IMG/VR virus record: IMGVR_UViG_3300030104_006170
Strand: one strand, 5' to 3'
Source of the DNA: a virus
Taxonomy: Duplodnaviria > Caudoviricetes
DNA: 64,000 nucleotides
Notes under the pieces: model-generated
The model's input: only the letters and a program-made list of their open reading frames with translations
Databases searched by the model: none
Told to the model about the DNA's origin: nothing
Translations under genes and position numbers: made by a program
Part shown: in pieces, positions 659-57,898 of the stretch
Numbering within the stretch: the stretch's first letter is position 1
Layout: each line of letters starts with the position of its first letter

Positions 659-994
659 ATGAATGTTATTTTAGATAATAAAGTCCTTCCACTAGAGATT
701 ATGTCTACTCCTAATGCTATTAGTACTGGTATGATGGGTAGGGAATTTCTTAATGGTGGAATGCTTTTTATTTTTCCGGAAGTTTCAGAACGTTCTTTCT
801 GGATGAAAGATTGTTTAATGTCTTTAGATATAATCTTTATCATTAATAATAAAGTTACTAAAGTACATAATAATTGTCCACCCTGTTATGAAAATAATTG
901 TGAATCCTATCAAGGCATTGCTGATAAGGTTTTGGAGATACCTTCTGGACAATTTAATGTAAGTGAGGGTGATTTATTAGAATTTACTGATTAG
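659..994 (+). CDS. DUF192 family protein
   Basis: GMMGR...GMLFIF...RSFWMKDCLMSLDIIFI...VLEIPSG pattern typical of DUF192. Confidence 0.85.
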   Translation: MNVILDNKVLPLEIMSTPNAISTGMMGREFLNGGMLFIFPEVSERSFWMKDCLMSLDIIFIINNKVTKVHNNCPPCYENNCESYQGIADKVLEIPSGQFNVSEGDLLEFTD

Positions 995-2429
995 CGTCTA
1001 TATTTTCTTTAATTTTCTTAACCATTTCTTTCTGTACCCATTTTACAAATTCTACATATCTTGTTGGTTTGGCGTCTGCTTTTTTATTGTAAGGTCCTTC
1101 TGGTTGTCTAGTTGCTCTACTAAAGAAATTTAACCCACTAATATTAGTTATACATTTGTGACCGCCACTATTAGCTTGTATAACATCCCAAGCTGGTACA
1201 GTTATCTTATCTAAAACTGCTTTTTGTTTTTCACTCAACTTGTCCCATGGTGTGTCAATTATACTAACCGCCATATCATAGTATTTAGAATCTGTTGATG
1301 GCATATTTTGTAGGTGGTCTTTATAGAGAGCGAATAAGTCTGAAGTTTTAAACCCAATACTTTCTCCTTCTGCTTTTGTCTCCCCTATTCTTTTAATCAC
1401 AGAGACTGGTACTTGGTGTTTTTTAAGTTGTGGTTCCACTTCTTTAAGTACTTCTTGTGCTATATCACCTAAGTTAACACCTTTAAGAGCTCTATCTTTT
1501 TTGAATGGATTACACGAAGCTTGTACAAGTCCCATTGGCCACGCCACCACAAAAAAGTCAGCGTCAGGATAAATTTTGAATGGTGTGTATCTATCATAGG
1601 AACCTGGTTTAAATAATCTACCACCTCCATATTGTACTATTATATTACCATCTAAATTTAGATTATCACTTTCTTGTTGGGATTTTATATATTCTGCTTG
1701 ATTTTGTGCCATTTCTTCTGGTGAAGCAAAACCTTTTTCTTTTGCGTATGAGGTTATGTTTTGGTAGATATTCATCAAGGATGGTGAAGAATTCATAACT
1801 AGATGTTCTAGGAATCCTGGTTTATTTTTATAAGCTAATAATAATTTATTAGTTAAAAGACCTAACATCCATCTTTTTTCGTAAGTCTGGTCACCAGATT
1901 CAAAATCTCTAATTAGATTCATTACTTGTTCTGGTTCAATATCGTGTTTTGCATAATCCGCAGAATCTACAGTATTAATCATCATTATATCTTCATCCGT
2001 AAAAATATCACTAGGACTTATAGTTTGTGAAATAGTTTCTACGTTTGACCTTGCTCCTCTAAATTGTGTTGCGGTATCATCTTCTACCCCTGCTTGTGAA
2101 TCGTGGTGGTCTGTATGGATTTTAAATATTGGTTTCCCGTGTGCAAAATCTACTAATACTGGCATTACATCTTCACTAGCTTGTGGTTTTTTTACTGAAA
2201 ATTCTTTGTCACCATATTGTATTACATGGGTGTCGATAACTTCTATACCATATTTTTCTAAGTAGTTCTTCATCCCTAAAGCGGATACCACCCCATCTAA
2301 ATCCTGGTGAAAATATATTTCTGCCTTTGGGTATCTTTGAGCTAACTTATTAATGTCTCTAATCCCACCTTCATTTATAAGTGACTCATTAATAAGTTCT
2401 AATTGTTTTGCTGTTATCTCGATTTTCAT
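984..2429 (-). CDS. DHH/DHHA1-like phosphoesterase with N-terminal MKIEIT leader
   Basis: Motifs HQDLDG, VDF, HTDHHDS and a C-terminal SGGHK. Start moved from 2495 to 2429 because 2495 overlaps the upstream gene and ATATTTATA lies 4 nt before 2429. Confidence 0.72.
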   Translation of the reverse strand: MKIEITAKQLELINESLINEGGIRDINKLAQRYPKAEIYFHQDLDGVVSALGMKNYLEKYGIEVIDTHVIQYGDKEFSVKKPQASEDVMPVLVDFAHGKPIFKIHTDHHDSQAGVEDDTATQFRGARSNVETISQTISPSDIFTDEDIMMINTVDSADYAKHDIEPEQVMNLIRDFESGDQTYEKRWMLGLLTNKLLLAYKNKPGFLEHLVMNSSPSLMNIYQNITSYAKEKGFASPEEMAQNQAEYIKSQQESDNLNLDGNIIVQYGGGRLFKPGSYDRYTPFKIYPDADFFVVAWPMGLVQASCNPFKKDRALKGVNLGDIAQEVLKEVEPQLKKHQVPVSVIKRIGETKAEGESIGFKTSDLFALYKDHLQNMPSTDSKYYDMAVSIIDTPWDKLSEKQKAVLDKITVPAWDVIQANSGGHKCITNISGLNFFSRATRQPEGPYNKKADAKPTRYVEFVKWVQKEMVKKIKENIDANQ

Positions 2430-2433
2430 ATTA

Positions 2434-2442
2434 TATAAATAT
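2434..2442 (-). promoter_or_regulatory. ATATTTATA motif (class II) upstream of the DHH gene
   Basis: ATATTTATA-TAAT-ATG on the minus strand. Confidence 0.5.
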
Positions 2443-2454
2443 CTACTTATTTGA

Positions 2455-3240
2455 TTAACACGGATGTCTTTTATCCCACCAAAATATATGGTCACCTATT
2501 TTCTTAGCTGACTTTTTATTGTTATTGTAAGATTTAGCGATAGTTCTAGTACTACCTGTACTTAAATCTACTATACTAGGGTTAACGTAGTGATTAACTT
2601 TAATAACATCCCCATCACCAAAGCCTTCAACTATTTTTAACATTTTATCAAAACCTTTTACTTTTTGGTTAGTTATCCTATTGTGTAACTCCTCAAACTT
2701 ACCTTCATTATCTAATCTATTAAAGTAGTTCCAAGTAGAGTATTGTTTTCCTTTTAATACAGAGTCTTTCATACTATATCCGCATTTATCTGCTCGGTTT
2801 TTTATTGTGGATAGTATCGCATTTAGTTCTTTTGTTCCAGCTCTCTGATTTTCACCAACTAAAGTAGAAGCTAAAATATAATCTTCATCATCTTTAGGAA
2901 TGTTTACATAAAGTCCTAATTTTTTTAAACCGTTAGGTCCTAATGGAATATTGTTATTTATTTGTTTACATAAATCTATGTTTAATTTAGTAGATAATGC
3001 TTTCAACATGTCTTTACCATAATAACCATCTCTACTTATACCTAATTTTTTTTGAATAACGTATATTGGGTGTGTTTTATCTAAATCATAATCACCATAA
3101 TTTAATATACTACCATTTCTTACCATGTCATAAAAAGAGACATCTACCTCGTTAAATTCTGTTTCTCCAGTAGGTACACAACTAACACCAACTTGTTCTA
3201 CAAGTTTAGTATATTGGTTTTCTGTGATTATTATACGCAT
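2455..3240 (-). CDS. Cell wall hydrolase (SleB/Hydrolase_2-like) with a peptidoglycan-binding segment and MRIIITENQY leader
   Basis: VIQKKLGISRDGYYG (PG-binding-like), then LASTLVGE...AILSTIKNR...SVLKGKQYSTWN...HYVNP...KIGDHIFW (SleB pattern). Start at 3240 rather than 3270. Confidence 0.8.
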   Translation of the reverse strand: MRIIITENQYTKLVEQVGVSCVPTGETEFNEVDVSFYDMVRNGSILNYGDYDLDKTHPIYVIQKKLGISRDGYYGKDMLKALSTKLNIDLCKQINNNIPLGPNGLKKLGLYVNIPKDDEDYILASTLVGENQRAGTKELNAILSTIKNRADKCGYSMKDSVLKGKQYSTWNYFNRLDNEGKFEELHNRITNQKVKGFDKMLKIVEGFGDGDVIKVNHYVNPSIVDLSTGSTRTIAKSYNNNKKSAKKIGDHIFWWDKRHPC

Positions 3241-3244
3241 AAAA

Positions 3245-3279
3245 AAGTCGTTTACAATAAATATAATCATAAACGACTT
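3245..3279 (-). terminator. Stem-loop followed by a T-run; intrinsic terminator or translational-repression hairpin with a class II motif in its loop
   Basis: Perfect 10-bp inverted repeat AAGTCGTTTA / TAAACGACTT around a 15-nt loop TGATTATATTTATTG; the 3' arm ends in a 6-T run that leads directly into the hydrolase ATG. Confidence 0.75.
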
Positions 3280-3303
3280 ACTCTATAAATAAACTCTAGT
3301 TAT

Positions 3304-4200
3304 TTACATACAACTAAAATACCTTTCTCCTCTATCACATAATATCGTTATAGCTTCTGTTTTGTCATTATCTCTTAACCACTGGAATGACGCAAATACA
3401 TTTGCTGCTGCACTTATCCCAACAAATAATCCATAATTTTTAGCTAAGTGTCTAGCACATGCTTTAGCACATTCTGTACTTACTATTCTTACTTCTGAAA
3501 CCACATCTAAATTTACTAAAAATTTACTTCCATCCCCAATACCTTGTATTCCATGTAACCCAGGTTCAAAACCCGACATTACCGCACTTTCTGCTGGTTC
3601 AATAGCTACTGATTTTATTTTAGGCCACATTTCTTTTAAAAATTTATCAGTACCCATTAAAGTACCACCTGTTCCGGTTCCAGCTACAAAAACTGCTGGT
3701 GATGATTTTTCACCTTTAATTTCTTTGTATTGATTGTAGAACTCGGGACCTGTAGTTTGGTAGTGTGCTTGGACATTTAGGGGGTTGGCGAACTGATTAC
3801 AGTTAAACCATTCGTTAACGTAACATAGTTCATCTCTCATCCTAATAGCTTCATCGAAGTCTCCTTCAGGTGCCTCAATTAATTCTGCCCCATAATACTC
3901 AAACATTTTTTTTCTTTCTTCAGACATGTTAGATGGCATTATTATCACCATCTTATACCCTCTTTCTGCTGCTAACATAGCAAATGCTATACCACTATTA
4001 CCACTAGTAGCTTCACACATAGTGTCTCCCGGAGTTAAAAGACCATTTTTTTCTGCATTGTTAATTATAAAAGTTGCCATCCTATCTTTTACTGAACCCG
4101 ATGGGTTCATAAACTCAGCTTTACCCCATACTGTGTATTTACCTATTTTTATAGGGATTAATGGTGTGTTGCCAGTGTAATTAGATAGTCTTTGTTTCAT
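3304..4200 (-). CDS. cysK: Cysteine synthase (O-acetylserine sulfhydrylase, PLP-dependent)
   Basis: GNTPL, KAEFMNPSGSVKDR (PLP lysine), EATSGNSGIA, GTGTGGT, HGIQGIG, LCDRGERYFS. Confidence 0.95.
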   Translation of the reverse strand: MKQRLSNYTGNTPLIPIKIGKYTVWGKAEFMNPSGSVKDRMATFIINNAEKNGLLTPGDTMCEATSGNSGIAFAMLAAERGYKMVIIMPSNMSEERKKMFEYYGAELIEAPEGDFDEAIRMRDELCYVNEWFNCNQFANPLNVQAHYQTTGPEFYNQYKEIKGEKSSPAVFVAGTGTGGTLMGTDKFLKEMWPKIKSVAIEPAESAVMSGFEPGLHGIQGIGDGSKFLVNLDVVSEVRIVSTECAKACARHLAKNYGLFVGISAAANVFASFQWLRDNDKTEAITILCDRGERYFSCM

Positions 4201-4628
4201 TAGTCTTCTATTTCTACGTTAAATTTGTCTCCTTGTTGTATTTTTTCAATTGTGTCTAACCCCTCAATAATTTTACCGAAACATGTGTGATTTCTATCTA
4301 AGTGTTGAGTTGCGTTTCTTGTATGTACAATAAAAAATTGTGACCCACCTGTATTTCTACCAGCGTGTGCCATAGATAGTACCCCTCTATCATGAAATTG
4401 GTTTTCTCCATCTAGTTCACAATCAATTTTATAACCTGGTCCACCATCTCCTCTTCCGTTAGGACAACCTCCTTGTGCTACGAATCCTGGAATAACTCGA
4501 TGAAAATTAAGGTCTTTATAAAAACCTTCTTTTGCTAGCTTAACAAAATTGTTTACTGTGTTTGGTGCGTCTTTTTCGTAAAACTCTACCACCATAGTTC
4601 CTTTATCTGTATTAATTTTACCTTTCAT
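4200..4628 (-). CDS. ppiB: Cyclophilin-type peptidyl-prolyl cis-trans isomerase
   Basis: APNTVNNF, FHRVIPGFVAQGG, GVLSMAHAGRNTGGSQFFI, HLDRNHTCFGK. Confidence 0.93.
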   Translation of the reverse strand: MKGKINTDKGTMVVEFYEKDAPNTVNNFVKLAKEGFYKDLNFHRVIPGFVAQGGCPNGRGDGGPGYKIDCELDGENQFHDRGVLSMAHAGRNTGGSQFFIVHTRNATQHLDRNHTCFGKIIEGLDTIEKIQQGDKFNVEIED

Positions 4629-4882
4629 TTTTTTAATTTATTAATTTCTCTGTTTATATACCAACTTGCTTTTTCCAAGTCTTCCAATGTATTAATTTTT
4701 TTACCTGCCCTAGAAATATACTTTACTGTATTACCTAAGTTAAATCCTAAGTCCCACGCTTCAATAACTTTAATAGCTTCATATGGGTTATCTTTACCAC
4801 CGTAGTGATTTGGGTGATTTACCTTTTCTGATTGTTTACGATTAAATTCTATTATTTCTTCGTTTGTAGGGTACTTAGTCAT
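4625..4882 (-). CDS. DUF3310 domain protein (SaV-like)
   Basis: VNHPNHY...EAIKVIE...FNLGNTVKYISRAGKK...LEDLEKASWYI. Confidence 0.88.
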   Translation of the reverse strand: MTKYPTNEEIIEFNRKQSEKVNHPNHYGGKDNPYEAIKVIEAWDLGFNLGNTVKYISRAGKKINTLEDLEKASWYINREINKLKK

Positions 4883-5213
4883 TTTTATCTTTTTTTATAT
4901 AATCTTTTACTTTTGTGTATTGAGAATTACTTAATAATGTAGTTTCATATCTTTTATAGATGTAATTTTTAAGTTCTTCAATATCTTTAAACTCGCTCTC
5001 ACAAACACTTACTATTTTAATATCGGTGTCTTCTTCGTCGGGAAAAAGTAATACCTCATAACCACTCTTATCACTTAAATCTAAAGCAAATTTTTCTAAA
5101 TCTCCTATTCTTAGTGTAGTTGGTTTGGATAGTTTTACCACCATTAGTGGTCTATATTTTTCTAATAGTAATTCGTTCGCTATTCTTTCAGTATTTGTAA
5201 TATCTTTAGACAT
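4875..5213 (-). CDS. Hypothetical protein
   Basis: 112-aa ORF tiling the operon, with a class I promoter directly upstream. Confidence 0.75.
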   Translation of the reverse strand: MSKDITNTERIANELLLEKYRPLMVVKLSKPTTLRIGDLEKFALDLSDKSGYEVLLFPDEEDTDIKIVSVCESEFKDIEELKNYIYKRYETTLLSNSQYTKVKDYIKKDKND

Positions 5214-5587: not shown

Positions 5588-5598
5588 ATACATAAATA

Positions 5599-6939: not shown

Positions 6940-8115
6940 TTATCTCCCTACTTCTTTTATATATTTTTCTTTTGTTTCTTCCCAGGATAAGTCAATCACA
7001 TCCCAGTAAAATAATTGTTCTTCTTTAATTCTATTTTGTTTCCAAATATTTTCATACCTACGAATAGCTTTAGGTTTCCACCATTTTTCAGTATAAGGAA
7101 TATCTTCTTTAAATTTCTTTTTTAAGATTAAGTCTTTTTCTTCTATTTCACCCCTTAAGAACTCACAACCATTATCATACATCATTGCAAGATAGACCCC
7201 CCTCTTAAACCCGTGGTCATAATCCGAACCCTTTATACCACAATGTTTAAAAACCTTGTTAAGGATGTTCTGTTTAGGTCCTGTAGCACTTATAGCTTTC
7301 TTATGTTCTTCTGGGTGGTTATCTTTCAACCATTTGTTCCAAGGTAGGTAAGCACTATCATCTGGTTTTAATCTAACCTTACCAGATGTTTCACCCATTG
7401 TTTTAAAATGTGGCATTCCATTATACATTGAATTTATTCCATACAGAGACGTTGTTCCCACAGCGATTAGTTTATCACCGTATTTTTCTTCCCAAGCATC
7501 TCTAATTGTTTTACAGGTTGTTAATGCGGCTACTAATTTACCCATTAACATATTATACCCACCTGGTTGGGTGGAACAGATAGTTGTTGCTATAGCTGTA
7601 TTGTTTAGTTTGTGTTGGTCAAACTTGTTGGTTTTATCCCAACCTATGTAGGCATCTCTAACTTTAATACTAGTAACATCAGACCCTAAACAAATCAAAC
7701 CAAGGACTTTGTTAGTTTTCCTATCTCTTACCCAGAATTTCATATTACGTCCAGGATTTGCAACCCATTCCATTGTATGGATAAGTTTACGGTAGTTTAC
7801 CCATTCGGTAACACCTTTTCCTGGTGTTGCCATTTCAACATAAGGTTCTAAGTTTTCAATTTCTGTTATTGTTTGTAATGTGTCTATTAAAAAAGTTGGT
7901 TTCCATAAATTTTCTTTATATGAATATAACTTCTTTTTTATTTTTGACATTTTACCACCCTTATTCATTTCTTGCCACTTTTTATAAAGTGTTTGTTCTT
8001 CTACAGACATTTCTTTAAGCATATCAAGATTGTCTATTAAGTTTTGTTTTTGACCTTCAAAGTCAAAAATCTCTTCATTTTCTATAATATCAAATATTGT
8101 TGTTTGTTCTCCCAT
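6940..8115 (-). CDS. DruA-like (DUF4338) protein
   Basis: PGRNMKFWVRD...LGLICLGSD...RDAYIGW...QPGGYNMLMGKLVA...WEEKYGD..IAVGTTSLYG..SMYNG pattern of DUF4338/DruA. Confidence 0.78.
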   Translation of the reverse strand: MGEQTTIFDIIENEEIFDFEGQKQNLIDNLDMLKEMSVEEQTLYKKWQEMNKGGKMSKIKKKLYSYKENLWKPTFLIDTLQTITEIENLEPYVEMATPGKGVTEWVNYRKLIHTMEWVANPGRNMKFWVRDRKTNKVLGLICLGSDVTSIKVRDAYIGWDKTNKFDQHKLNNTAIATTICSTQPGGYNMLMGKLVAALTTCKTIRDAWEEKYGDKLIAVGTTSLYGINSMYNGMPHFKTMGETSGKVRLKPDDSAYLPWNKWLKDNHPEEHKKAISATGPKQNILNKVFKHCGIKGSDYDHGFKRGVYLAMMYDNGCEFLRGEIEEKDLILKKKFKEDIPYTEKWWKPKAIRRYENIWKQNRIKEEQLFYWDVIDLSWEETKEKYIKEVGR

Positions 8116-8198: not shown

Positions 8199-8435
8199 AT
8201 GGCTTGTAAAAATTGTAAAGAAAAAACTTCTAAATATTTAAAACAGTTAAATAATATGGGTGCAAATGTTAATTTTGACACCGAAGCTAGAAAAAAACAA
8301 ATCTTAGAGAAGACTTGGGACTCGTCAATGGGTAAACTTAGGATGTGGGAACGTTTGGTGATAATTCTATTTGCTTGGATTCCTTTGATAATTGGTTACT
8401 TCACTATAATTAGATTTATAGTTTCATTATTCTAA
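8199..8435 (+). CDS. Small membrane protein with N-terminal CxxC (MACKNC)
   Basis: C-terminal hydrophobic helix. Start at 8199 preferred because the ATG at 8181 overlaps the ATATTTAT motif (8175-8182). Confidence 0.7.
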   Translation: MACKNCKEKTSKYLKQLNNMGANVNFDTEARKKQILEKTWDSSMGKLRMWERLVIILFAWIPLIIGYFTIIRFIVSLF

Positions 8436-9433
8436 CTAAAATTTTCTTTTGTTTTTAAATTCATTAGTAACTCTTCTTCCTCTTTTGTTAATGAATTAGG
8501 TATTTTAACTTGTGGTTTAATTATTAAGTCCCCCTTACCTCTTTGAGAATTCATTCCTTTACCCCTTACATTAAAACTTTCGGTAACTTTACTAAGTGGT
8601 GGTATTTTTGCTTTTAGAGGTCCACTAAAATGTGGTATTTCTAAATCTGTACCCAATAACATGTCTATTATTGGTATTTCCACATCATATACCAAGTCTC
8701 TATCTAAAACTTTAAAGTGGGGATGTCTTGCAATTACTACTTGTATATTTAAATCACCTGGGATACCACCATCAATTTCATCCCCGTGATTTCTAATAGT
8801 GAACACTTGACCTGTCATTAAGTCCACAGGGATTCTAAAGTCTACAGTTTGAGGTTGTTTAGTTTGGCCTATACCACCACAACCACCACAAGCTTCAACT
8901 ACTATTTTACCAGACCCATTACATTGGGGGCATTGTTCCCTTTGGATTTGTCTAAAAAAAGCATTACCTACGGCTTTTTCTACAAACCCCCTTCCCTTAC
9001 ACATATTACACGGGTGTGAGTTACCACCACTACCTCTACAAGTTGTACAATTTACCTGTCTATTATATCTTAATTTTTTAATTTCACCAAAAAATACATC
9101 TTCTAAGGTGACAGTTAACGGTATATTTAAACTTCTACCCTTTTTTTGTTGTCTTTGTTGTTGTCTCCCACCAAAAAATTGATTGAATATGTCGTCCATG
9201 TTTGGACCCCCTCCCTGTCTACCATGAAATGGATTATTTAATTTATTATCATACTCCGCACGTTTACCACCATCACCTAAAGTATCGTAAGCTTCGGATA
9301 GTTCTTTAAATGTATTTTCATCACCACCTTTATCTGGATGATGAGTTTTGGATAATTTCCTAAATGCCTTTTTTATCTCATCTTGAGTGGCATTTCTATT
9401 GATATTTAGAGTTTTGTAATAATCTTTATTCAT
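8432..9433 (-). CDS. dnaJ: DnaJ (Hsp40) chaperone, class I
   Basis: J-domain with HPD, G/F-rich linker, four CxxCxGxG repeats, DnaJ C-terminal domain (GDLNIQV, GKGM, GDLII). Confidence 0.95.
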   Translation of the reverse strand: MNKDYYKTLNINRNATQDEIKKAFRKLSKTHHPDKGGDENTFKELSEAYDTLGDGGKRAEYDNKLNNPFHGRQGGGPNMDDIFNQFFGGRQQQRQQKKGRSLNIPLTVTLEDVFFGEIKKLRYNRQVNCTTCRGSGGNSHPCNMCKGRGFVEKAVGNAFFRQIQREQCPQCNGSGKIVVEACGGCGGIGQTKQPQTVDFRIPVDLMTGQVFTIRNHGDEIDGGIPGDLNIQVVIARHPHFKVLDRDLVYDVEIPIIDMLLGTDLEIPHFSGPLKAKIPPLSKVTESFNVRGKGMNSQRGKGDLIIKPQVKIPNSLTKEEEELLMNLKTKENFS

Positions 9434-17000: not shown

Positions 17001-17008
17001 ATAAATAT
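17001..17008 (-). promoter_or_regulatory. ATATTTAT motif (class II)
   Basis: Overlaps the sigma-factor stop codon, 14 nt upstream of the ATG at 16986. Confidence 0.45.
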
Positions 17009-17805
17009 TAATCACCCAGGTATTCTAACAGTTGGTAGCTGTCATTTCTTAATTTTCTTAATACTTTTTCTTTTATTTGTCTTACTCTTTCTTTAGTTAG
17101 ACTTAGTCCGTCCCCAATTTCTTGTAGAGTCATTGGTGTACCACATAGACCATAATAGTCTATAATAATGTTTCTTTCTCTTTCATCTAGGCTAGACATC
17201 AATTTATAAAGTTCATCTTTTAAATTAACTTCATCTGCAAAAATATCTTCAGGATTTTCAGCATCTGGATTAACTAATATATCTATGAGAGTATCACCTT
17301 CTTCATTTATTGGTCGGTCATAGTTAATTGTTACTGGTAACATAGCAAGTTTACTATTCCACTTTTCTATTTCCTGACTAATTTTTTTCTTTTCTCTTTG
17401 TAGTTCTTGAATTATGTTCACCGGTAGTCTTATAGTCCTAGCGTTTTCGTTTAGACATTGTAGTATAGATTGTTTAACCCACCAGACAGCGTAAGAAATA
17501 AACCTAAAACCTTTATCCCAATCAAAGTTTTTTATCGCTTTAAGTAAACCATAATTACCTTCTGCAATTAAATCAGAAAGTTCAACCCCTTGTCCTTGGT
17601 AGTCTTTCGCTACACTAATAACAAATCTAAGGTTTCCCTCTAGTAATTCTAAATGTACTTCTTCTCTTTTTTCTATCGGGGTGTTCTTATCTAACATTAT
17701 TTTAGCTAATTCTTTTTCTCTAGCTGGTGTTAGTACTTTTCTTTTTCTCACATCTTTTAAGTAGTGTGATATTTCTGCCTGATTTATAAATGTATTTTTT
17801 GCCAT
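17008..17805 (-). CDS. rpoD: RNA polymerase sigma-70 factor (RpoD/SigA-like, Bacteroidota-type, no region 1.1)
   Basis: Region 1.2 YLKDV; region 2 NLRFVISVAKDY..DLIAEGNYGL.KAI..FD...RFISYAVWW; region 4 HTH MTLQEIG..LSLTKERVRQI. Confidence 0.92.
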   Translation of the reverse strand: MAKNTFINQAEISHYLKDVRKRKVLTPAREKELAKIMLDKNTPIEKREEVHLELLEGNLRFVISVAKDYQGQGVELSDLIAEGNYGLLKAIKNFDWDKGFRFISYAVWWVKQSILQCLNENARTIRLPVNIIQELQREKKKISQEIEKWNSKLAMLPVTINYDRPINEEGDTLIDILVNPDAENPEDIFADEVNLKDELYKLMSSLDERERNIIIDYYGLCGTPMTLQEIGDGLSLTKERVRQIKEKVLRKLRNDSYQLLEYLGD

Positions 17806-21227: not shown

Positions 21228-21950
21228 GTGAAAATTAGAATAACCGAAAATCAGTACACTAAATTAGTTAAGGAACAGAGGATTAGTATAGACAAAATTA
21301 AGAAAAATCTTCCTGACCCAATTAAAAAAATAGCGGAAGCTATCATTAATAGATTAACTAAACCTAGTCCTACTGATTATAAAACATTACGTACATTATC
21401 TAGAGATAAATTAAAAAAAGTTTTAAGTTACATTCCTTCTAAATATAAAAATAATGGTGATGCTCCAACATTGTACCCAATACCCACTTTACCAAAAAAA
21501 ATTAATAGTTGTTATGGGTATAGAACTGCTACTGGTACTAATAGATTACACAGTGGTGTGGATTTGGATACTACTGGTTTAAGAAATGACCAACCTCTTA
21601 TATCTGCATGTGCGGGTATTGTTAGTAAAGCTAGTGATGATGGTGGTGATTGTGGTGGTTTTATAAAAGTTGATTGTAATAATGGGGATGCTGTTGGTTA
21701 TTGCCATATGAAAGTTGTTAATGAAAACTTGTATGGTTTAAAAATACCTAAAGGTTTTCCTGTTGGGGTTTCTGGTGGTGGTGAAGGTGACCCAGGTGCT
21801 GGTAATTCTATGGGTCCTCACTTACATTACATGATTTGGAAGGGTGGTAAAAAAGTTAACCCTATAAATGTGATGGCTGGTGGACATACTATTCCTGCTG
21901 GTGGTAGTGAAAATAGAAAGGGTAAGTATTGTGACCCTAACGCTAGATAG
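21228..21950 (+). CDS. M23 family peptidoglycan endopeptidase with MKIRITENQY leader (GTG start)
   Basis: HSGVDL (HxxxD), ISACAGIV, GGFIKV, YCHM, GNSMGPHLHY (HxH). Confidence 0.9.
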   Translation: MKIRITENQYTKLVKEQRISIDKIKKNLPDPIKKIAEAIINRLTKPSPTDYKTLRTLSRDKLKKVLSYIPSKYKNNGDAPTLYPIPTLPKKINSCYGYRTATGTNRLHSGVDLDTTGLRNDQPLISACAGIVSKASDDGGDCGGFIKVDCNNGDAVGYCHMKVVNENLYGLKIPKGFPVGVSGGGEGDPGAGNSMGPHLHYMIWKGGKKVNPINVMAGGHTIPAGGSENRKGKYCDPNAR

Positions 21951-56953: not shown

Positions 56954-57898
56954 TTAAGGATTTACATATTCAAAAAATTTTATTGGTGTTCCATTGGGTA
57001 CTTGTAGCGTACCTGGTACTGCTCCACTTGGAGTTTGACCTGGTAAACCAGTCCCTTTTACTCCACCACCACCCCCCATAGCCATAATTGCTTCATTAAA
57101 TTCAGTCACCACATAACGATATTTTGGGTCGGTTGTAGATGCATTACTGGGATTTATATATAATTTAACTTTATAATAGAACCATTCTGGGTAACTTAAT
57201 ATTTCACCGTTTACAATTTCACTTAGAGTTGGTTGTTGGTTTATCATATTGGTTACTTTACCAGTTTTTGCGTTAAAAAATTTACAACTCATATAAAACT
57301 CATTAATTTCTGTTAGTTCCCTATCTTTTAACCATTGTATATAATAATTTTCACTTCTACCATGTAGGGGACCCAATAAAGCAATAGGAACATACACCCC
57401 ATACATTGGTATTGGAATGTTGTCTGCTATTTGTGAGTAATATTCTGTGGGGTCTTGTAATGGGTCTACTGCTGTTTCTACCTTTATACAATTATTTAAA
57501 GACATTATATTGGTGAACATTATTTTTTGTTCTTTTCTTAATGGTGAATCATAAAAATCAAACTTAAAAAAACTTCTAGTAAATGCTTTTTTAGGTTTTG
57601 CTAATTCTTTATCTGCAAAACCTAAAACGTTAAAGTTTGGTGTGGGTATTGGGTATTCTTGATTTGCATAATCCCAAAAATTAAATTCATAAGATATGGT
57701 ATTACCACTAATATTATTTTTATAAGCATATCTAGTTGTTTCATAATCTTGTATAACATTTATATTATCTTGTAACTCGACTTCTTCCCAAGTTCTAACT
57801 AATTGTTCGTTACCTATTTCATCAAAAGTTTGACCTATAGGTATAGTTATAGACTTATCTTTAGTAGAAGCTTTTATGTTTAATCTATTGACAGCCAT
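56954..57898 (-). CDS. Putative virion structural protein
   Basis: 314-aa ORF in the structural operon; FFKFDFYDSP...YMSCKFFNAKTG. Confidence 0.65.
   Translation of the reverse strand: MAVNRLNIKASTKDKSITIPIGQTFDEIGNEQLVRTWEEVELQDNINVIQDYETTRYAYKNNISGNTISYEFNFWDYANQEYPIPTPNFNVLGFADKELAKPKKAFTRSFFKFDFYDSPLRKEQKIMFTNIMSLNNCIKVETAVDPLQDPTEYYSQIADNIPIPMYGVYVPIALLGPLHGRSENYYIQWLKDRELTEINEFYMSCKFFNAKTGKVTNMINQQPTLSEIVNGEILSYPEWFYYKVKLYINPSNASTTDPKYRYVVTEFNEAIMAMGGGGGVKGTGLPGQTPSGAVPGTLQVPNGTPIKFFEYVNP

Follow-up and report, generated by a model that had tools for sequence, protein, structure and literature searches.

At the locus considered here, a hairpin with a promoter-like box in its loop lies directly in front of the start codon of a putative cell-wall hydrolase, and a co-directional block of genes lies upstream of it. 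This raises the question of where transcripts of the hydrolase gene begin, and of what becomes of RNA that arrives from the upstream block. The inhibitory hairpin of T4 gene e was reportedly described by McPheeters et al. in 1986, and the original prediction for the present locus was that it is built on the same logic. That prediction was followed up in the whole stretch of viral DNA to which the locus belongs (64,000 nucleotides, termed the window) and in relatives of the element from other contigs. The element is real, conserved and structured, and with moderate confidence it is best read as a T4 gene e-like promoter-in-hairpin gate that doubles as a terminator.

In T4, the initiation region of gene e is held in an inhibitory hairpin that has late promoters inside it, and the same has been described for soc, 49 and I-TevI (PMC3014915, section 29). 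The gene e-type structure has been reported only in close T-even relatives (PMC3014915). The features of the present locus are collected in Table 1, in the order in which the minus strand is read.

Table 1. Features of the hairpin locus, in window coordinates
Feature	Coordinates	Strand	Remarks
Four-gene block, co-directional	3304..5213	-	112-aa ORF, DUF3310, cyclophilin PPIase, CysK-like PLP enzyme
5′ arm	3266..3279	-	Core of 10 nt at 3270-3279; 14 nt with two wobble and two A-U pairs
TATTTAT, candidate -10-only (gp55-type) promoter	3257..3263	-	First five bases in the loop, last two open the 3′ arm
3′ arm	3245..3258	-	Core at 3245-3254
Predicted transcription start zone, AAA(C)	3250..3253	-	4-7 nt past the box; predicted from sequence
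Six-T run directly 3′ of the stem	3241..3246	-	Putative terminator U-tract; unstructured leader in the putative short RNA
Start codon and conserved 16-residue leader, MRIIITENQ...L.EQ	3193..3240	-	I-x-E and L-x-E motifs
Predicted muralytic enzyme, 261 aa	2455..3240	-	Peptidoglycan-binding-like and SleB-like catalytic domains
Next gene, DHH-like, with a similar leader	984..2441	-	Own TATTTAT 5 nt before the ATG at 2429

Structure of the hairpin

On the minus strand, the core of the 5′ arm (AAGTCGTTTA, 3279-3270) is followed by an interval of 15 nt (3269-3255), the core of the 3′ arm (TAAACGACTT, 3254-3245), TTTT (3244-3241) and ATG (3240-3238). The two cores form a perfect 10-bp stem, which RNAfold lengthens to a helix of 14 bp through U-G, G-U, A-U and U-A pairs, leaving a loop of 7 nt (UAUAUUU, 3259-3265). 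The hairpin has a folding energy of -18.2 kcal/mol (z -2.7 against dinucleotide shuffles), and a 53-nt piece around it folds at -17.3 kcal/mol (z -5.3). The geometry is thus the one that had been predicted for this strand: RNAfold confirms a perfect stem that can be extended with the help of two G-U wobble pairs, and the loop box (ATATTTAT, 3264-3257) is followed by the 3′ arm, the T-run and the ATG at 3240.

A terminator scan also lists this hairpin, with a 14-pair stem that includes 3 G-C pairs, a loop of 7 and six T. The layout of an intrinsic terminator, in which a stem with G-C pairs and a loop of 3-8 nt are followed immediately by a T-run, is present at 3241-3279, and this is the only clean intergenic hairpin with a T-run on the coding strand of the window. 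Across 2900-3700, no Rfam family was matched.

The window is AT-rich and contains 66 inverted repeats of at least 10 nt whose arms lie at most 30 nt apart. This means that a single sequence alone does not put the hairpin beyond chance, and that the relatives decide. Elsewhere in the window, at 57589-57627, a 314-aa gene of the baseplate block contains a perfect inverted repeat of 13 bp whose arms are 13 nt apart.

Conservation and covariation of the stem

Relatives of the element were found at 13 loci by IMG/VR protein search and at one further locus by DNA pattern scans, while a metagenome scan seeded with the N-terminal peptide added 48 more. Together with the window, these loci, which lie on marine viral and metagenome contigs, yield 40 versions of the element that differ from one another. 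Among GenBank phages, no close relative of the window was found.

In the 40 variants, 95.2% of the 560 cells of the 14-bp helix hold standard pairs; in controls with the 3′ partner displaced by 1-3 columns, the share is 34-57%. Both sides have changed at three pairs, which appear as GC/CG/AU, as GU/CG/AU/UG and as CG/AU, respectively. The covariation score is 0.239 compared to 0.147 in shuffles, a value reached by 0 of 500 shuffles, and RNAalifold returns the same helix from the variants. Compensatory and G-U-preserving changes mean that selection acts on the pairing and not on the sequence alone; judged from these substitutions, the stem is under selection, and the expectation that relatives would conserve it with compensatory changes is borne out by the three pairs and the high overall pairing. 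Moreover, 84 of the 560 cells are G-U pairs. Because a G-U pair corresponds to an A-C mismatch on the opposite strand, the selected structure belongs to the sense-strand RNA.

The element is still present where the proteins have fallen to 31% identity. Most variants keep the T-run, whose length varies by 1-2 nt from one relative to another. In two divergent variants it is down to 3-4 T, and these retain the stem.

In one metatranscriptome run, 6% of words were recovered, as assembled contigs of relatives at 85-95%. These assembled contigs carry no start, end or strand information, and an RNA contig end at 3284 was not counted as evidence.

The TATTTAT box

The box in the loop, TATTTAT, is invariant in 40 of 40 variants. 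Three divergent versions have a loop of 16 nt in place of the short form of 7 nt, and all of the extra bases lie 5′ of the box. Growth of the loop on that side only means that the box keeps its position relative to the 3′ arm.

In the 40 nt upstream of gene starts of the window, no 7-mer is more enriched than TATTTAT: 10 of its 26 sense copies fall within the 2.9% of the sequence that is gene-upstream (p about 1e-9). It is again the top upstream 7-mer in G002, a 210-kb relative with the same cassette, where 47 of 168 copies fall within 1.6% of the sequence (p about 5e-44). Written as an 8-mer, the gene-linked boxes read TATTTATA, which matches T4 TATAAATA in 6 of 8 letters. T never precedes a gene-linked box, an A follows it in 79% of cases (36% of free copies), and an A-rich patch, AAA at +5 to +7, is found in 76-88% (29-36% of free copies); the 118 free copies are without the extended consensus. 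The hairpin site fits this extended consensus, with A or G before the box (C in one variant), and its AAA at 3253-3251 is invariant or nearly so among the variants. On sequence grounds, this A-rich patch is the most likely place for transcription to start.

The box is likewise found before lone plus-strand genes amid minus-strand genes, at 659, at 8199 and at 21228, the last of these encoding an M23 peptidase. Such genes need a promoter of their own, so the box argues for a signal in DNA rather than in RNA. Nothing like a conserved -35 element was seen: columns 5′ of the stem vary freely among the variants, and the box is not TATAAT-like with a -35 partner. A sigma70 consensus scan of the window did no better than shuffles, and in the literature no paper tying TATTTAT to a phage promoter was found.

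The distance from box to ATG is bimodal in both the window and G002, with one class at 4-6 nt and another at 11-19 nt. If transcription starts 5-7 nt past the box, the class with a spacing of 4-6 nt would give leaderless mRNAs, or else would follow a different start rule. The DHH gene is an example of short spacing, and its 5 nt are kept in nearly all relatives. A second TATTTAT lies at 3285-3291 (minus strand), 5 nt upstream of the 5′ arm, in some upstream contexts only, namely after CysK and in some versions after a 160-aa protein (L024, L025). If active, this second box would give an RNA that starts with the whole hairpin.

Enclosure of the box in a hairpin is confined to this site. In the window, one of 14 gene-upstream boxes is enclosed by a stable helix, and the others give z values of -1.7 to +1.3. 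In G002, one of 167 boxes is enclosed by a long helix, and it is the one at the orthologous site. At two further boxes of G002, at about 176141 and 203018 (minus strand), a strong hairpin abuts the box on its 5′ side or overlaps it, one of the two reading GGTGGA...TCCACC and then a T-run; these are looser terminator-then-promoter pairs. The idea that the cassette is a dispersed repeat was rejected, as it is present in a single copy in the window.

Lineage and timing

The lineage is evidently T4-like, as read from the genes of G002. This relative has Pfam matches to the Gp23 major capsid protein (E 8e-64) and the T4 portal (E 1e-80), an S77 prohead protease (E 3e-26), and homologs of the gp17 terminase, the gp25 baseplate protein and the gp18 sheath. 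In addition, one G002 ORF has a gp55 PHROG match as its sole match, a weak one (E 4e-5 for one genome, 8e-4 for the library). We infer that the host belongs to the Bacteroidota.

The homologs of gp17, gp20, gp21 and gp25 have the box in front of them in G002. The gp18 and gp23 homologs are without a directly preceding box, gp23 lying downstream of gp21 in the same direction. The box is absent before the gp61 homolog and present before the gp41-helicase homolog. In the window, no box precedes the gp46-, gp47- and gp61-like genes, the exonuclease, the resolvase or the sigma70-family gene, and boxes are found before the leader-bearing enzymes and in the baseplate block. From these positions, TATTTAT is likely to mark a late promoter class. 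The earlier proposal of a putative late promoter in the loop is supported in that the motif is the dominant gene-upstream box and resembles the T4 late promoter; its lateness is drawn from homology only.

The Bacteroidota-type motif TAnnTTTG is not enriched near gene starts of the window, where 3 were found and 3.2 expected, and TATTTAT is also found upstream of the four-gene block, at 5598. The ppiB-cysK block may therefore not be early. Among the other products of the window are a complete DnaJ of three domains and a sigma70-family factor that has regions 2 and 4 (8432-9433 and 17008-17805, both on the minus strand). Upstream of the sigma70-family gene lies TATATTTG, of the Bacteroidota -7 type, and not TATTTAT.

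The downstream gene and its product

The ORF lister places the start of the downstream gene at an in-frame ATG at 3270, inside the stem. This start was rejected because the codon is not conserved and because shifts in the length of the T-run (1-2 nt) would break the frame; the real start is thus 3240, directly after the T-run, in agreement with the earlier assignment. No Shine-Dalgarno sequence precedes this ATG. The core helix ends 4 nt upstream of the AUG, whose AU is paired only in the extended fold of the window.

The I-x-E and L-x-E motifs of the leader are invariant among relatives. At the start of the gene, ATGCGTAT (3233-3240, minus strand) encodes Arg as CGT in a genome of 30% G+C and is invariant in 44 cassette versions, while the codons after it vary synonymously. 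Pairing of ATGCGTAT with the 3′ arm was considered and rejected: the arm changes from ACGAC to AGGA with ATGCGTAT unchanged, and there is no covariation.

For the window enzyme itself, Pfam gave no match, with weak PG_binding_1 matches in 5 of 12 relatives, and PHROG gave weak endolysin matches only. A PDB profile sequence search gave nothing significant, and Foldseek against the PDB gave nothing at E <= 0.001. An AlphaFold model of the enzyme (pLDDT 76.5) has as its best fold match the SleB catalytic domain (Z 5.7, rmsd 4.0, 98 aligned) and as its second-best the SleB N-terminal peptidoglycan-binding domain (Z 5.6), both modest. The residues G-E and Q-Y-x-x-W are invariant among relatives of the enzyme. 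Although the fold scores are modest, a muralytic role is supported by these invariant residues and by the replacement of the domain by a lysozyme in relatives. The claim that the gene encodes a cell-wall hydrolase is thus supported, with SleB domains as top folds at modest Z and Phage_lysozyme in the same place in relatives.

Leaders nearly identical to that of the SleB-like enzyme (3193-3240, minus strand) are found on two enzymes unrelated to it and to each other, the DHH-like enzyme (2385-2429, minus strand) and the M23 peptidase (21228-21280, plus strand), which has a GTG start. In T4, the internal proteins and Alt carry capsid-targeting sequences that are cut by the prohead protease gp21 at (L/I)-x-E. 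The short conserved I-x-E/L-x-E leader, common to the M23 and DHH enzymes, resembles these sequences, and a relative encodes an S77 protease. The likeness concerns the protein product and not the hairpin. All three leader-bearing enzymes may be capsid-loaded cargo. Since the leader is shared with the M23 peptidase and the DHH enzyme, the lysin may be virion cargo, carried in the capsid, rather than a lysis endolysin.

Neighboring genes and mobility of the cassette

In the window, the CysK-like PLP-dependent gene occupies 3304-4200 and the cyclophilin PPIase gene 4200-4628, and the genes of the block overlap or abut. Further upstream, a 391-aa ORF at 6940-8115 (minus strand) matches Pfam DruA, a Druantia defence protein (E 1e-25). 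Among relatives, the upstream neighbor varies and may be CysK, a 160-aa protein, a DUF3310-like protein or a small membrane protein. Despite these upstream contexts, of which there are at least four, the cassette always lies 5′ of the same kind of gene.

In the stretch that begins with the 5′ arm and ends at codon 16, the relatives are 76-94% identical to the window, and the flanks are about 60% identical, as in unrelated AT-rich DNA. Behind the cassette and leader (MRI.I.E.Q...L.EQ), the catalytic part is either of the window type or Pfam Phage_lysozyme (E 1e-16 to 1e-21). On these sequence matches, the exchange of SleB-like for Phage_lysozyme is a non-homologous replacement at a fixed socket. 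On the 5′ side, the mosaic junctions are only a few bases from the stem; on the 3′ side, they follow the leader.

Versions with Phage_lysozyme, of the T4 lysozyme family, are located at L008:4031-4585, L012:2065-2679 and L021:5008-5562. DNA contigs from other samples depart from the window at 3295-3304, a mosaic junction just 5′ of the hairpin; one of them enters the context of the 160-aa protein, and another exits the CysK gene into unrelated sequence.

A proposed composite terminator and promoter

The favored reading, which is held to be rather more probable than its negation, is that of a composite terminator/promoter cassette that insulates the lysin gene and joins the logic of T4 gene e to a terminator. 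Transcripts from the upstream block would fold the hairpin and terminate at the U-run. In RNA that reads through, the helix would persist up to 4 nt from an AUG devoid of a Shine-Dalgarno sequence, and 30S binding would be hindered. The box in the loop (TATTTAT, consensus TATTTATA) would serve as the -10-only promoter of the phage, probably read by a gp55-type late sigma factor, and transcription from it would start in the AAA patch of the 3′ arm, at about 3253-3250. The resulting RNA would have an open, U-rich leader of 11-13 nt. As such an RNA is without the 5′ arm, neither the terminator nor the block could form in it.

In computed folds of ten diverse variants, opening the initiation region costs 6-14 kcal/mol in read-through RNA versus 1-4 kcal/mol in loop-started RNA, the latter taken to begin 6 nt past the box. 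Probably, the only transcripts that yield the lysin are those begun within the hairpin. To judge by the conserved T-run, termination may be no less important than a translational block, and such a block is less certain than in T4, since the AUG lies outside the core helix and lacks a Shine-Dalgarno sequence. The promoter role of the box, the start site, the timing and the roles of termination versus translational block are what we infer.

Alternative explanations

The hairpin could be an ordinary intrinsic terminator of the upstream operon that overlaps a promoter because the genome is compact, with no translational gating and no link to the lysin. Its stem, 7-nt loop and T-run, the last conserved in most variants, would fit, as would the terminator-like hairpins directly 5′ of TATTTAT elsewhere in G002. 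Such a terminator is nevertheless unlikely, because the hairpin tracks the lysin gene over at least four upstream contexts and two unrelated catalytic domains, because the enclosing layout is unique among the 14 boxes of the window and the 167 of G002, and because variants with only 3-4 T retain the stem. It is also quite improbable that TATTTAT acts in RNA, in which case the hairpin would lie inside an mRNA started upstream and its loop UAUUUAU would be cleaved or bound by a protein. The cutter would be an RNase E/G-like enzyme or a phage endonuclease, and the freed 3′ arm would activate translation. The box stands before isolated plus-strand genes whose promoter must lie at most a few tens of bases away, it shares 6 of 8 letters with the T4 late -10 element in a T4-like lineage, and the A-rich patch 5-7 nt past it resembles a start site, all of which speak for DNA. 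What an RNA signal would explain is the variable spacing of the box, 4-30 nt from start codons and often in short co-directional operon gaps, and its display in a loop, as activation by processing would account for the hairpin too.

A recombination linker like the PeSLs of T4-type phages, homogenised by phage exchange and with a helix of little regulatory role, is very doubtful. The compensatory and G-U-preserving changes indicate selection on pairing, and the cassette is single-copy in the window and in G002, unlike the dispersed PeSLs; these points weigh against a linker even though the cassette forms an island of 76-94% identity between swapped flanks (background about 60%) with mosaic junctions within a few bases of the stem on the 5′ side and past the leader on the other. 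The inverted repeat around a conserved loop sequence also recalls a DNA hairpin promoter extruded from supercoiled DNA, as for the virion RNA polymerase of phage N4. That G-U (G-T) is tolerated on the sense, non-template strand only, that the lineage is T4-like and that 13 other gene-linked boxes of the window have no hairpin make such a promoter scarcely credible here.

Comparison with known systems

The composite terminator/promoter cassette has its closest counterpart in T4 gene e. When the T4 gene e region was folded in the same analysis, TATAAATA was found in the loop of a hairpin of -19.4 kcal/mol, so the likeness that had been proposed extends to the position of the box in the loop. In both cases, a stable hairpin (-18 kcal/mol here, -19.4 kcal/mol in T4) lies directly before a muralytic gene, a -10-only AT-rich 8-mer, here a candidate promoter, lies in the loop, and RNA begun there would be without the 5′ arm. 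Moreover, the lineage is T4-like, and the gated gene of relatives encodes an enzyme of the T4 lysozyme family. The two differ in the box, which is TATTTAT(A) here and TATAAATA in T4, and in the initiation region. The AUG and Shine-Dalgarno sequence of T4 e lie inside the helix, whereas here a Shine-Dalgarno sequence is missing and 4 nt separate the AUG from the core helix. In addition, the U-run is conserved here, which makes the hairpin terminator-like too, and the presumed host is from the Bacteroidota.

Promoter-early stem-loop (PeSL) cassettes have been described in the T4-type phages RB49/phi1, PST and nt-1 (PMC2839356, PMC4122927). Like the present cassette, they combine a promoter with a terminator stem-loop over the -10 region, just before a start codon, at junctions of gene swapping. 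PeSLs have sigma70-type early promoters (-35 and -10) and are scattered in many copies through hyperplastic regions, whereas the cassette here is single-copy, with a presumed late box and without a conserved -35. Intrinsic (Rho-independent) terminators share with it a G-C-containing stem, a short loop and a U-run, but here an invariant promoter-like box occupies the loop, and the next start codon comes directly after the U-run.

Significance

It is possible, though doubtful, that the T4 superfamily as a whole uses the promoter-in-loop hairpin, ancestral or re-invented, for its muralytic genes, that the hairpin does three jobs here, and that its product is a capsid-loaded, injected lysin. If this were true, the jobs would be those of a terminator, of a hairpin-free late mRNA start without a ribosome-binding sequence, and of a portable linker for swapping wall-cutting domains. 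In the case of re-invention, this would have occurred with a different late-promoter word, in Bacteroidota-infecting giant phages.

The gene e hairpin of T4 is a textbook case of temporal control by RNA structure. Its layout in very distant, uncultured, T4-like marine phages of Bacteroidota suggests that the design is general or has evolved recurrently, which would suit enzymes that must not appear early. The locus is also a clear example of a regulatory cassette and leader peptide that together form a fixed socket for different muralytic domains. Finally, it offers a sequence handle on transcription in abundant uncultured phages, in the form of the TATTTATA box, the predicted start site and late mRNAs that may lack a leader.
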